Of a stretch of DNA of 4,748 bases, positions 1,937 through 3,874 are shown in pieces; position 1 is the first letter of the stretch, and each line of letters starts with the position of its first letter. The stretch is from the IMG/VR virus record IMGVR_UViG_2675903396_000016, one strand, 5' to 3'. The DNA is from a virus (lineage: Duplodnaviria > Heunggongvirae > Uroviricota > Caudoviricetes). The notes under the pieces were generated by a model. The model was not told where the DNA came from, did not search any database, and was given only the letters and a program-made list of their open reading frames with translations. Both the position numbers and the translations under genes were made by a program.

Positions 1937-3874
1937 ATGTCGATTAAACATTATGATGTTGTCAGGGCGGCGTCGCCGTCAGACCTTGCGGAAAAGCTGA
2001 CACACAAACTGAAAGAGGGCTGGCAGCCGTTTGGTAGTCCTGTGGCCATAACCCCTTATACCCTGATGCAGGCGATTGCCGCGGAGGGGGATGTGACCAC
2101 GCCAGTGGTTGTGCCCGGCACGGGGGATGGTGGCTATCCGGGAGTGGTCACCACGGAGCCAGATTATTACTACGTTATTCCACTGGCCGGGCAGTCGAAC
2201 GGCATGGCTTACGGTGAGGGGCTTCCTCTGCCGCAGACATATGACCGTCCTGACCCGCGTATAAAGCAACTGGCTCGTCGCAGCACAGTGACGCCGGATG
2301 GCGCTCCCTGTAAATATAACGACATTATTCCGGCAGACCACTGTCTGCATGATGTACAGGACATGAGCCGTCTTAACCATCCGAAAGCTGACCTGTCGAA
2401 AGGTCAGTACGGAACCGTGGGGCAGGGGCTGCATATTGCCAAAAAGCTGCTGCCGTTTATACCGGCGAATGCGGGTATTCTTCTGGTTCCGTGCTGCCGT
2501 GGTGGTTCAGCTTTCACCACCGGGGCAGATGGAACATACAGTGACGTGACCGGTGCCTCAGAGAGTTCTACCCGCTGGGGTGTGGGCAGGCCGCTGTATA
2601 AGGATCTCATCGGTCGTACAAAAGCCGCGCTGGCAAAGAACCCGAAAAATGTGCTGCTTGCCGTGGTGTGGATGCAGGGGGAATTTGACTTTGACGGAAC
2701 GCCAGCAAATCACACAGCCCGTTTTACAGAAGTAGTGGAACAATATCGTACGGACCTTGCAGATATGGTGGGACAGTGCGCTGGTGGTTCTGCTGACGGT
2801 GTTCCCTGGATATGTGGAGACACAACTTATTTCTGGAAGCAGAAGAGCGAATCCACTTACCAGACGGTGTACGGCAGTTACAAAAACAAAACGGAAAAGA
2901 ATATTCACTTTGTGCCGTTCATGACCGATGAGAACGGAGCAAATGTCCCGACGAACAAACCGGAAGAAGACCCGGATATTCCGGCATCAGGATATTACGG
3001 TGCGGCCTCCCGGACGTCGGCAAACTGGACGTCAGCAGACCGTGCGAGCCATTTCAGCTCATGGGCACGCAGGGGGATTATTTCTGACCGTCTTGCCTCA
3101 GCGATTCTTCTCCATGCAGGACGGACGGCTGAACTGGTGGGTGGGGAACAGGTTGTGATGCCGCCGGATGAGAAGCCGTCACCGGACACACCATCAACAC
3201 CGTCAACGGACGGGAAATCAGTGACAACGCTGCTTTATTACCGTGCAACAGAGTCAGGTGGTTTACTGAATCCGCAGGGATGGGGAGCTGAAGGAGGGCG
3301 TGCATTGGTAGTTGATGATGCAGGTGCTGCAGGAGGTAAGGCGCTGAGGTGGACCAAACAGACAGGAAGTTCCTCGTGGTTTATGCAGCATGATGCCGGT
3401 AATGGCGCAGACCTGCTGGAGAAGGGCGGGCTTATCAGTTGTCGTTTTAAAGTTGATGGCACACTGACAGCTAATCAGTACGCACTGGCGCTGTACTGGC
3501 CGGTTTCTTCACTGCCTCAGGGCGTCACACTGGAAGGTAATGCCGGTCATAACCTGCTGGCGTCGTTTTACGTACAGAGCGATGCCACAGACCTTAATGT
3601 GATGTACCACAAGGGAAATGCTGGTCAGAACACGAAGCTGGGGTCATTCGGCGCATTTGATAACGAATGGCATACGCTGGGCTTCCGTTTTGCCGGTAAC
3701 AACAGTATTGAGGTGACGCCGGTCATTGATGGTAAGGACGGGACGCCGTTCATGCTGTCACAGTCACCGGTCGGCACGTTTACGGCAGACAAATTGCGCG
3801 TGACCGATATCACTAGCGGTGCGACATATCCGGTGCTGATTGAAAGTATAACAGTGGAAGTGAATAACCCGTAA
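1937..3874 (+). CDS. nanS-p: Prophage NanS-p-type sialate (9-O-acetyl-Neu5Ac) O-acetylesterase: N-terminal DUF1737-like region, SASA/SGNH-type esterase domain, C-terminal beta-rich domain
   Basis: 645-aa ORF with GGGAGA Shine-Dalgarno (1925-1930) 6 nt before the ATG. The N-terminus MSIKHYDVVRAASPSDLAEKL... and the YYYVIPLAGQSNGMAYGEG block (GQSN serine motif near 2189-2200) match what I recall of NanS-p esterases encoded next to stx in EHEC prophages. A Pro/Ser/Thr linker (PPDEKPSPDTPSTPSTDGKS, about 3158-3220) precedes a C-terminal domain. Antisense and alternate-frame ORFs inside it are spurious. Confidence 0.85.
   Translation: MSIKHYDVVRAASPSDLAEKLTHKLKEGWQPFGSPVAITPYTLMQAIAAEGDVTTPVVVPGTGDGGYPGVVTTEPDYYYVIPLAGQSNGMAYGEGLPLPQTYDRPDPRIKQLARRSTVTPDGAPCKYNDIIPADHCLHDVQDMSRLNHPKADLSKGQYGTVGQGLHIAKKLLPFIPANAGILLVPCCRGGSAFTTGADGTYSDVTGASESSTRWGVGRPLYKDLIGRTKAALAKNPKNVLLAVVWMQGEFDFDGTPANHTARFTEVVEQYRTDLADMVGQCAGGSADGVPWICGDTTYFWKQKSESTYQTVYGSYKNKTEKNIHFVPFMTDENGANVPTNKPEEDPDIPASGYYGAASRTSANWTSADRASHFSSWARRGIISDRLASAILLHAGRTAELVGGEQVVMPPDEKPSPDTPSTPSTDGKSVTTLLYYRATESGGLLNPQGWGAEGGRALVVDDAGAAGGKALRWTKQTGSSSWFMQHDAGNGADLLEKGGLISCRFKVDGTLTANQYALALYWPVSSLPQGVTLEGNAGHNLLASFYVQSDATDLNVMYHKGNAGQNTKLGSFGAFDNEWHTLGFRFAGNNSIEVTPVIDGKDGTPFMLSQSPVGTFTADKLRVTDITSGATYPVLIESITVEVNNP

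Follow-up and report, generated by a model that had tools for sequence, protein, structure and literature searches.

A NanS-p sialate O-acetylesterase gene of the Sp6 type in a prophage late operon with predicted Q-dependent expression

Sequence comparison identifies the open reading frame at positions 1937–3874 as NanS-p, a prophage-borne paralogue of E. coli NanS, and assigns it to the allele of Sp6, a defective lambdoid prophage of the O157:H7/O55:H7 lineage. The gene lies in a stretch of 4,748 nucleotides, referred to here as the window, whose features are collected in Table 1. The explanation that we favour, and which we consider very probable as a whole, is that this is the NanS-p of an Sp6-type prophage, expressed late in dependence on the antiterminator Q, released by lysis, and induced spontaneously. 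The frame itself is exactly the 645-residue, ATG-initiated, plus-strand frame that had been described in a preceding sequence-only reading of the same DNA.

Table 1. Positions of genes, protein domains and regulatory features in the window, with the evidence for each.
Feature	Position	Strand	Evidence
Late antiterminator Q gene, 273 aa	107–928	+	Pfam PF03589 Antiterm, E 4.7e-50; PHROG 127 and 25523 'anti-termination protein Q-like'
Candidate PR', TTGATT, 16-nt spacer, TAAATT, TG two bases upstream of the -10	934–961	+	Read from sequence; putative
Intrinsic terminator, tR'-like, 7-bp GC-rich hairpin (1009–1026) then T7	1009–1033	+	-12 kcal/mol, z -3.09
TerB/TciA-family pseudogene, in the moron (stx) slot	1166–1458	+	'Tellurite resistance TerB family protein, internal stop' in CB9615 and EDL933
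DUF3927 family ORF, small hydrophobic, 55 aa, GTG start	1455–1622	+	Equivalent position is WP_000216629.1 in annotated relatives
STnc100-family small RNA, truncated variant	1630–1796	+	Rfam RF02076, 101.6 bits against gathering score 47, E 4e-22
Intrinsic terminator, 8-bp hairpin (1824–1842) then T8	1824–1850	+	94 nt before the nanS-p ATG; -15.4 kcal/mol, z -3.42
Shine-Dalgarno sequence GGGAG	1925–1929	+	7 nt before the ATG; read from sequence
nanS-p, prophage sialate O-acetylesterase, 645 aa	1937–3874	+	ATG start; Pfam, PHROG and PDB matches
DUF1737 domain, N-terminal, aa 4–50	1946–2086	+	Pfam PF08410, E 3.3e-15
NanS-like SGNH/SASA esterase domain, aa 73–391, with Ser87 and His372	2153–3109	+	PDB 3PT5, E 2.5e-119
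Lectin-like jelly-roll domain, C-terminal, aa 429–644, DUF6645	3221–3868	+	PDB 6YP6 'NanS-p', E 1e-96; Pfam PF20350, E 7e-71
DUF1378 gene, 60 aa	4022–4204	+	Pfam PF07125, E 5.8e-40
DUF826 gene, 89 aa	4242–4511	+	Pfam PF05696, E 1.2e-34
Class II (P21-type) holin S, truncated by the end of the window	4587–4748	+	Pfam PF04971, E 1.2e-20; 'class II holin family protein' in relatives

PHROG 143 matched the esterase from end to end, and the Pfam domains DUF1737, SASA and DUF6645 each exceeded their curated cut-offs, the SASA domain (PF03629) scoring 43.1 bits against a cut-off of 24.8. Four SGNH blocks were located, GQSN at residues 85–88, RGGSAF at 188–193, MQGEFD at 246–251 and RASH at 369–372; the first is the serine motif that had already been noticed from the letters alone, and all four are of the NanS type when compared with the 3PT5 blocks given in PMC10792757. 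RASH and RSSH are both described as variants of the catalytic-His block in the NanS-p family (PMC10462455). The protein is 100% identical, over all 645 residues, to EDL933 WP_000023170.1 and to Sakai Sp6 ECs_1527. Taken together, the three Pfam domains, the PDB matches to NanS and to the NanS-p C-terminal domain, the four blocks and this identity bear out the earlier proposal of a NanS-p-type enzyme of the SASA family. A search of NCBIfam gave no match for the esterase, a result that is uninformative beside the decisive Pfam, PHROGs and PDB matches.

All four of the proposed sugar-site aromatics are kept, as Y515, Y520, Y545 and F615 in an alignment to the 933W protein; the reference residues are Y510, Y515, Y540 and F611 of vb_24B_21, on the assumption that this protein shares the 933W numbering, both being 645 residues long. 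No signal-peptide-like hydrophobic segment was found in the first 75 residues, where the maximum Kyte–Doolittle mean over 15 residues was 1.1. A GGGAGG or GGGAG motif is conserved at the same spot as the Shine-Dalgarno sequence in other nanS-p loci. The possibility that the esterase gene is a pseudogene was rejected, the frame being intact and its product identical to annotated proteins.

By homology, the product would be an SGNH-fold esterase that uses Ser87 of the GQSN block as nucleophile and His372 of the RASH block as base and takes O-acetyl groups off Neu5,9Ac2 and off related sialic acids of mucin. E. coli can catabolise the resulting Neu5Ac, and the C-terminal lectin-like jelly-roll domain probably targets glycans. 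A canonical SGNH hydrolase has Ser-His-Asp, with the Asp three residues before the catalytic His in block V (D-x-x-H), whereas the window protein has Arg369 at this position (R-A-S-H) and, as is the case for NanS, lacks the D-x-x-H motif. In NanS, the Ser and His have been proven by mutagenesis and a main-chain oxygen contacts the catalytic His, for which there is no identified acidic partner. The sequence-only reading had held that absence of a conserved Ser-His-Asp arrangement would speak against the assignment. This criterion is invalid, because NanS itself has no identified Asp and carries R-x-S-H in place of D-x-x-H, the family using a Ser-His pair with R-x-S-H in block IV. The missing D-x-x-H is a property of the NanS family and no evidence against membership.

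The nanS-p gene is found at no less than 99% nucleotide identity in 305 complete-genome records. In EDL933, the prophage that carries WP_000023170.1 lies next to potC, and we take it to be CP-933N. Gene order in Sakai Sp6 and EDL933 is that of the window (Q, TerB pseudogene, DUF3927, nanS-p, DUF1378, DUF826, holin), and differences are restricted to the flanking DNA, where the TerB pseudogene of the window lacks a further 70 bp and a few single bases differ. Among complete E. coli genomes, none of the 12 best matches listed (795 further records) was a single contiguous match with this deletion, all of them aligning in two pieces.

The NanS-p of the Stx2a phage 933W (L0105, z1466 or 933Wp42) has the same length and the same three-domain layout, with an overall identity of 73% (esterase domain 87%, C-terminal domain 69%, DUF1737 60%), whereas the residues that link DUF1737 to the esterase domain show essentially no relationship (12% identity). 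The catalytic Ser and His and the four sugar-site aromatics are common to both proteins. The 933W gene occupies the equivalent place in the late operon, preceded as in the window by STnc100 and the conserved terminator, but tRNA genes and stx2AB stand where the window has its decayed TerB/DUF3927 module. In addition, 933W has a full STnc100 together with the antisense AsxR RNA, whereas in the window STnc100 is truncated and an anti-sRNA is absent, and the Q protein of 933W is of a 144-residue type, as against 273 residues in the window. The protein vb_24B_21 of phage Phi24B is a near-identical relative of the 933W enzyme, and its C-terminal domain is the structure PDB 6YP6.

Chromosomal NanS (YjhS, PDB 3PT5), encoded in the nanCMS operon, shares the block types GQSN, RGGSAF, MQGEFD and R-x-S-H with the window protein and, according to the literature, its substrate class with NanS-p. 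It consists of the esterase domain alone, in a 337-residue chain without DUF1737 or the lectin-like C-terminal domain, and unlike nanS-p it belongs to a sialic-acid-inducible chromosomal operon. The 933W and other EDL933 NanS-p alleles are active Neu5,9Ac2 esterases that de-O-acetylate mucin glycans (PMC8065619, PMC10462455), and removing every nanS-p allele abolishes growth on Neu5,9Ac2 (PMC8065619, PMC5923452, PMC10462455). Esterase activity of the window allele is predicted from the statements on EDL933 alleles in reviews together with sequence identity.

The gene lies in the late region between Q and the lysis cassette, a context that is seen in full in the prophages of CB9615, EDL933 and Sakai Sp6, whereas the window covers this part of the prophage alone. 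The earlier placement between the Q/PR'/tR' module and the holin was correct as to order but not as to direct flanking, as TerB/TciA, DUF3927 and STnc100 intervene upstream and DUF1378 and DUF826 downstream. The comparison with the stx slot of Stx phages also held, the nanS-p homologue starting approximately 490–500 nt after stxB in 933W, phage 86 and Stx1_499. In the window, this slot contains the decayed TerB/TciA gene, which has an in-frame TAG at 1232–1234 and its 70-bp deletion at about 1403/1404, followed by the small DUF3927 frame and the STnc100-family RNA. ARAGORN detected no tRNA genes, so that the window lacks the tRNA cluster of Stx phages. The equivalent of Q is annotated as 'antitermination protein' in CB9615, EDL933 and Sakai, and the 273-residue Q type is termed uncharacterised in PMC10462455.

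The candidate PR' scores below the threshold of the consensus scan, and its place right after the Q stop codon matches that of the PR' annotated in 933W; both PR' and its Q-utilisation (qut) site are putative and assigned by position. A weaker hairpin is present at 962–978. Two intrinsic terminators had been proposed upstream of nanS-p, and both were recovered between Q and the esterase frame, each of them strong. A homologue of the second, again a hairpin with a T-run, lies 99–105 nt before the ATG in four of the five other nanS-p phages sampled. The sequence-only reading had found no convincing promoter for the gene itself, only a weak TTGATT/TAACTC pair at 1885–1911, and we reached the same view: the pair is present (1885–1890 and 1906–1911), but with a spacer of just 15 nt and a -10 from which the final T is missing. 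A scan for sigma-70 consensus sites reported neither this pair nor any other sigma-70-like site on the plus strand between 850 and 4100, and the pair was rejected as a real promoter. The 5' untranslated region (1853–1940) folded no better than shuffled sequence (z +0.63). Downstream, the plus strand showed no terminator-like site from 3875 up to the following gene (4022), nor from nanS-p to the holin; a hairpin at 3888–3926 has no T-run. With neither a promoter nor a terminator of its own, nanS-p is not an autonomous moron.

The core helices of STnc100 are present in the window, and in 933W, phage 86, two Stx1a phages and PhiR12_2 a member of this RNA family likewise lies upstream of nanS-p. 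Alignment to the 3' part of the model is poor, 24 model positions corresponding to 2 bases, and the 3' hairpin of the RNA itself (model positions about 165–206) was not found in the window. Also absent is a hairpin with a T-run that each of the five other loci carries 216–234 nt before the ATG. Since this terminator hairpin of STnc100 has been lost, transcripts would run on to the hairpin at 1824–1842. Rfam matches to asX2 (25 bits against a gathering score of 70) and suhB/mmgR (20.5 bits against 41) were dismissed as chance.

The late operon can thus be read in the order Q, PR', tR', decayed TerB/DUF3927 moron, STnc100 RNA, conserved terminator, nanS-p, DUF1378, DUF826 and holin. Because the esterase gene has no promoter of its own and lies behind two terminators, this architecture makes Q-dependent late expression of the window allele likely. 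Substantial transcription of nanS-p would require Q-modified RNA polymerase to read through both terminators, and such read-through would take place only in cells in which the prophage switches to late gene expression. This logic agrees with the published view; nanS-p of Stx2a phages increases by 1–2.4 logs with mitomycin C, and z1466 increases with norfloxacin together with stx2 (PMC8065619, PMC10462455).

In a prophage of the Sp6 type, we expect this switch to occur spontaneously and not to be driven by the SOS response or by mitomycin C. The Sp6 repressor has no SOS-cleavage (peptidase) domain, and Sp6 is induced spontaneously, not by mitomycin C; it is classed as defective, excises spontaneously and can transfer (PMC2669165). 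Mitomycin C, with which the sequence-only reading had proposed to follow transcription, is probably the wrong inducer for the window allele. The enzyme would most likely be freed when the late-expressing subpopulation lyses, because it has no signal peptide and would be co-transcribed with the lysis genes. Once outside the cell, it would act on free and mucin-bound sialic acids, and siblings that survive would profit.

The growth that EDL933 achieves on Neu5,9Ac2 depends on its number of nanS-p copies (conference report, PMC5923452), and the 933W protein increases 40-fold in simulated colonic medium (PMC8065619). If these cultures were ordinary uninduced ones, as we assume, both observations suggest that useful enzyme is made without deliberate induction, and basal enzyme could reflect read-through or an unrecognised promoter rather than Q. 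They also speak for an explanation by lysogenic conversion, in which ordinary lysogens would express useful amounts independently of Q. Transcripts from STnc100 or from some unrecognised promoter would leak through the hairpin at 1824–1842, and the enzyme would be active within living cells or on their surface. An STnc100-family gene, presumably with its own start, does lie directly upstream on the same strand, the loss of its own terminator hairpin would let transcripts reach 1824–1842, and chromosomal NanS supports growth although it, too, has no signal peptide. However, the plus strand offers no sigma-70-like promoter, and the terminator that would have to be passed is strong (-15.4 kcal/mol, T8), stands 94 nt before the ATG and is kept in four of the five other nanS-p phages sampled. 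Induction, moreover, raises Stx-phage alleles 10- to 250-fold, in step with stx2 (PMC10462455), and spontaneous Sp6 induction in untreated cultures can account for basal activity (PMC2669165). We consider lysogenic conversion unlikely on this balance. It is distinctly unlikely that STnc100 RNA, terminator and nanS-p form a regulatory unit of their own and not passive cargo, in which conditional read-through, for example under gut-like conditions, would yield Q-independent esterase in living lysogens.

A benefit to the phage itself, with host nutrition secondary, appears very unlikely. Here the esterase, released by lysis or borne on the particle, would de-O-acetylate mucus or bacterial surface polysaccharides, so that progeny could move through mucus or reach receptors. 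The position of the gene beside the lysis cassette in the late operon of Stx phages and non-Stx phages alike, the lectin-like C-terminal domain, and a weak PHROG 'tail protein' match over the esterase core (E 2.8e-5), in a fold also used in tail proteins, are consistent with this idea, which was raised in PMC8065619. The same review reports no experimental support for it, and the gene lies outside the structural module. Sialic acids are substrates of the recombinant enzymes, which support the growth of bacteria (PMC8065619, PMC5923452), and the allele is intact in an EDL933 prophage whose portal gene is frameshifted and whose tape-measure gene is truncated, which argues for host-side selection.

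That the gene is a silent relic, intact by chance in a defective prophage, never expressed and contributing nothing, is highly improbable: the adjacent TerB gene has decayed to a pseudogene, carrying a stop codon and, in addition, a 70-bp deletion, the EDL933 portal, tape-measure gene and exonuclease are damaged, and Sp6 is classed as defective (PMC2669165), but the 1938-nt frame is intact with its product unchanged between EDL933 and Sakai, the gene recurs in the 305 genome records at the identity given above, Q and the lysis genes are intact, as is the Shine-Dalgarno sequence, Sp6 excises spontaneously and is capable of transfer (PMC2669165), and, according to reviews, every EDL933 allele yielded an active esterase and growth scales with the number of alleles (PMC8065619, PMC5923452).

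The favoured reading, a late-expressed and lysis-released NanS-p, describes a gene that is already known: it is identical to a catalogued O157:H7 allele, its family and regulation have been described, and the result is correct but ordinary. The value of the analysis is that the annotation is confirmed, that the tests by Ser-His-Asp arrangement and by mitomycin C are corrected, and that the upstream small-RNA and terminator context is recorded. Through NanS-p enzymes, enterohaemorrhagic E. coli can use the O-acetylated sialic acids of colonic mucus, and the many copies carried on Stx and non-Stx prophages make these enzymes part of the contribution of prophages to gut fitness.

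Homology and identity show the nanS-p product to be an SGNH esterase of the NanS type, its predicted catalytic residues being Ser87 and His372, with a lectin-like module at the C terminus. The sequence-only reading had located the ORF and its GQSN motif (residues 85–88) exactly and had proposed a Pfam search for DUF1737 and SASA, both of which matched above their curated cut-offs. PHROG 143 matched the product end to end, and a search of solved structures matched residues 73–391 to the NanS/YjhS structure 3PT5 (E 2.5e-119) and residues 429–644 to a 6YP6 chain deposited as 'NanS-p' (E 1e-96). 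Alignment to the NanS-p of Stx2a phage 933W identified Y515, Y520, Y545 and F615 as conserved equivalents of the aromatics in the proposed NanS-p sugar site. The SGNH blocks are GQSN (with Ser87), RGGSAF (188–193), MQGEFD (246–251) and RASH (369–372, with His372), and all four share the unusual forms of NanS; PMC10792757 lists those of 3PT5, and RASH/RSSH forms are reported for NanS-p in PMC10462455. Together with 100% identity to O157:H7 proteins, these matches bear out the family assignment. Absence of a Ser-His-Asp arrangement had been put forward as counting against it. The Asp is indeed absent, Arg369 lying three residues before His372, yet this is typical of the NanS family: mutagenesis has proven the Ser and His of NanS, but its acidic partner 'remains to be identified' (PMC10017367), and a structural survey assigns its role to a main-chain oxygen (PMC10792757). 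The missing Asp, being the family norm, is therefore no argument against membership.

Features of the window around nanS-p (aa, residues of the nanS-p product)
Feature	Position	Strand	Details
Antiterminator Q gene	107–928	+	273 aa; PF03589, E 4.7e-50; 5' of nanS-p
Candidate PR'	934–961	+	TTGATT, 16-nt spacer, TAAATT; from position and sequence; below scan threshold
Weak hairpin	962–978		between candidate PR' and first strong terminator
Strong terminator	1009–1033	+	−12 kcal/mol, z −3.1
TerB/TciA-family pseudogene	1166–1458	+	in-frame TAG 1232–1234
DUF3927 ORF	1455–1622	+	55 aa, hydrophobic, GTG start; reference-genome annotation
STnc100-family small RNA	1630–1796	+	RF02076, 101.6 bits vs gathering score 47
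Second strong terminator	1824–1850	+	−15.4 kcal/mol, z −3.4; 94 nt before nanS-p ATG
Shine-Dalgarno GGGAG	1925–1929	+	7 nt 5' of nanS-p ATG
nanS-p ORF	1937–3874	+	ATG start, 645 aa
DUF1737 domain	aa 4–50		Pfam, E 3.3e-15, above curated cut-off
SASA sialic-acid-specific acetylesterase domain	aa 83–275		Pfam, 43.1 bits vs cut-off 24.8
DUF6645 domain	aa 494–611		Pfam, E 7e-71, above curated cut-off
DUF1378 gene	4022–4204		3' of nanS-p
DUF826 gene	4242–4511		3' of nanS-p
P21-type holin	from 4587		3' of nanS-p

The window matches an O55:H7 and O157:H7 lambdoid prophage at 99.8–99.9%. The identical proteins are EDL933 WP_000023170.1, encoded in the potC-adjacent prophage, and Sakai ECs_1527, annotated '9-O-acetyl-N-acetylneuraminic acid deacetylase' within a feature annotated 'prophage Sp6; lambda-like phage'. 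The 933W enzyme (L0105/z1466), which has been characterised biochemically, shares 73% identity with the window protein overall; the figure is 87% for the esterase domain, 69% for the C-terminal domain and 60% for DUF1737. In a set of 5,426 complete E. coli genomes, the allele occurs at no less than 99% identity in 305 records; a separate count found 583 genomes with a copy that spans 80% or more of nanS-p, and complete E. coli genomes hold up to 15 matching places each. The Sp6-type prophage carrying the gene, viewed in EDL933 (NZ_CP008957.1, 1625000–1665000) and in Sakai (Sp6), has a RacR-type repressor and YdaS/YdaT-like neighbours; in the EDL933 copy the portal gene is frameshifted and the tape-measure and exonuclease genes are truncated.

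The proposed order, with nanS-p between the Q module and the holin, holds, but direct adjacency does not: the interval from Q to nanS-p is not empty. Placement in the stx slot agrees with Stx phages, where the homologue starts 487 nt after stx2B in 933W and 486 and 500 nt after stxB in phage 86 and Stx1_499. In the window, the slot that holds stx in those phages is occupied by the TerB/TciA pseudogene. Its TAG is common to CB9615 and EDL933, and it carries a 70-bp deletion at about 1403/1404 that did not appear as a contiguous match in any of the 12 complete E. coli genomes listed as best matches. The DUF3927 ORF overlaps the pseudogene end by 4 nt and may correspond to tciB of phage JLK-2012. 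JLK-2012 has tciA and tciB annotated in its region matching the window. No tRNA genes were found in the window.

We compared the STnc100 region with five loci (933W, phage 86, two Stx1a phages and the non-Stx phage PhiR12_2), whose NanS-p proteins are 52–76% identical to that of the window. All five have a full-length STnc100 match (143–208 bits) on the same strand 5' of nanS-p, and four have an antisense anti-sRNA, AsxR or AgvB. A home-made scan for hairpins with T-runs detected STnc100's own terminator-like hairpin 216–234 nt before the ATG in every locus, and a hairpin homologous to window 1824–1842, 99–105 nt before the ATG, in 4/5. Unlike these full-length copies, the window STnc100 has neither a 3' hairpin of its own nor the anti-sRNA segment, so its core is fused straight to the conserved terminator before nanS-p. 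Tree et al. 2014 list convergent small RNAs at the 'moron' site in Sp3, 4, 5, 9, 10, 11, 15 and 17; the omission of Sp6 agrees with the anti-sRNA-free window.

PMC10462455 describes the 273-aa Q type as uncharacterised, with no relationship to Q933, Q21 or QO111, and no experimental definition of its promoter or Q-utilisation (qut) site was found in the literature. Two stretches of this Q match the Antiterm domain, and a DnaJ-type CXXCXGXG zinc-finger match falls below threshold (30.6 vs 32.7 bits). We infer that the late promoter PR' lies at 934–961. With the first strong terminator it would yield a leader RNA of about 65–70 nt, comparable to the short transcripts that lambda and Stx phages make from PR'; the leader region (934–1033) has no Rfam match above threshold.

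The claims that nanS-p has no convincing promoter of its own and lies behind two intrinsic terminators were confirmed. The TTGATT/TAACTC pair at 1885–1911 combines a 15-nt spacer with a poor −10, a promoter scan found no sigma-70-like site on the + strand in 850–4100, and both strong terminators separate the candidate PR' from nanS-p. Downstream, nanS-p leads into the lysis genes with no terminator-like site on the + strand before the next gene. The 153-nt spacer there is more stably folded than its shuffled counterparts (z −2.4), and an 8-bp GC-rich inverted repeat, GGCCGCCG...CGGCGGCC (3888–3926, +), lies just 3' of the stop with no T-run; other prophages have PasA/PasC small RNAs between esterase gene and holin. 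This architecture supports a predicted Q-dependent late expression, a view also taken in the literature from conserved gene position; there it is backed by the mitomycin C response of nanS-p mRNA in Stx2a strains, a rise of 1–2.4 log, and by the co-induction of z1466 and stx2 by norfloxacin (PMC8065619, PMC10462455).

Q-independent expression in living lysogens is an unlikely alternative. EDL933 growth on Neu5,9Ac2 scales with nanS-p allele number in cultures assumed uninduced (PMC5923452), and the 933W protein rises 40-fold in simulated colonic medium (PMC8065619); deliberate induction is therefore not needed for some enzyme to be produced. Its source may be spontaneous induction or Q-independent read-through.

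Under Q-dependent expression, Q-modified polymerase from PR' would transcribe nanS-p through both terminators, and the enzyme would be synthesised in the cytoplasm without a signal peptide; no signal-peptide-like hydrophobic stretch was found in its first 75 residues. Co-transcribed holin and endolysin would lyse the induced subpopulation and release NanS-p, which would de-O-acetylate free and mucin-bound sialic acids extracellularly, and surviving siblings would then take up Neu5Ac. Reviews describe the 933W and other EDL933 NanS-p alleles as active Neu5,9Ac2 esterases that de-O-acetylate mucin glycans, and report no growth on Neu5,9Ac2 once all nanS-p alleles are deleted (PMC8065619, PMC5923452, PMC10462455). 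A primary benefit to the phage and a silent relic are both very unlikely readings, the latter marginally more so.

Both the observation and the interpretation of the sequence-only reading are thus supported. The gene itself is not new: its product is identical to an O157:H7 allele that has been catalogued, and structure determination, enzymology and expression work on the family have been published. Added here are the decayed TerB/DUF3927 module and truncated STnc100 in the Q-to-nanS-p interval, the finding that the proximal terminator is conserved, a correction to the catalytic criterion and an Sp6-specific induction caveat. Asadulghani et al. 2009 (PMC2669165) found the Sp6 repressor to be missing the peptidase domain on which SOS induction depends, and Sp6 circles to occur in untreated cells with no increase on mitomycin C; Sp6 is classed there as spontaneously inducible, not mitomycin C-inducible. 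The prophage therefore probably switches spontaneously, and for this allele the mitomycin C test proposed in the sequence-only reading may give a false negative. This induction behaviour matters for the expression of any late gene in an Sp6-type element.
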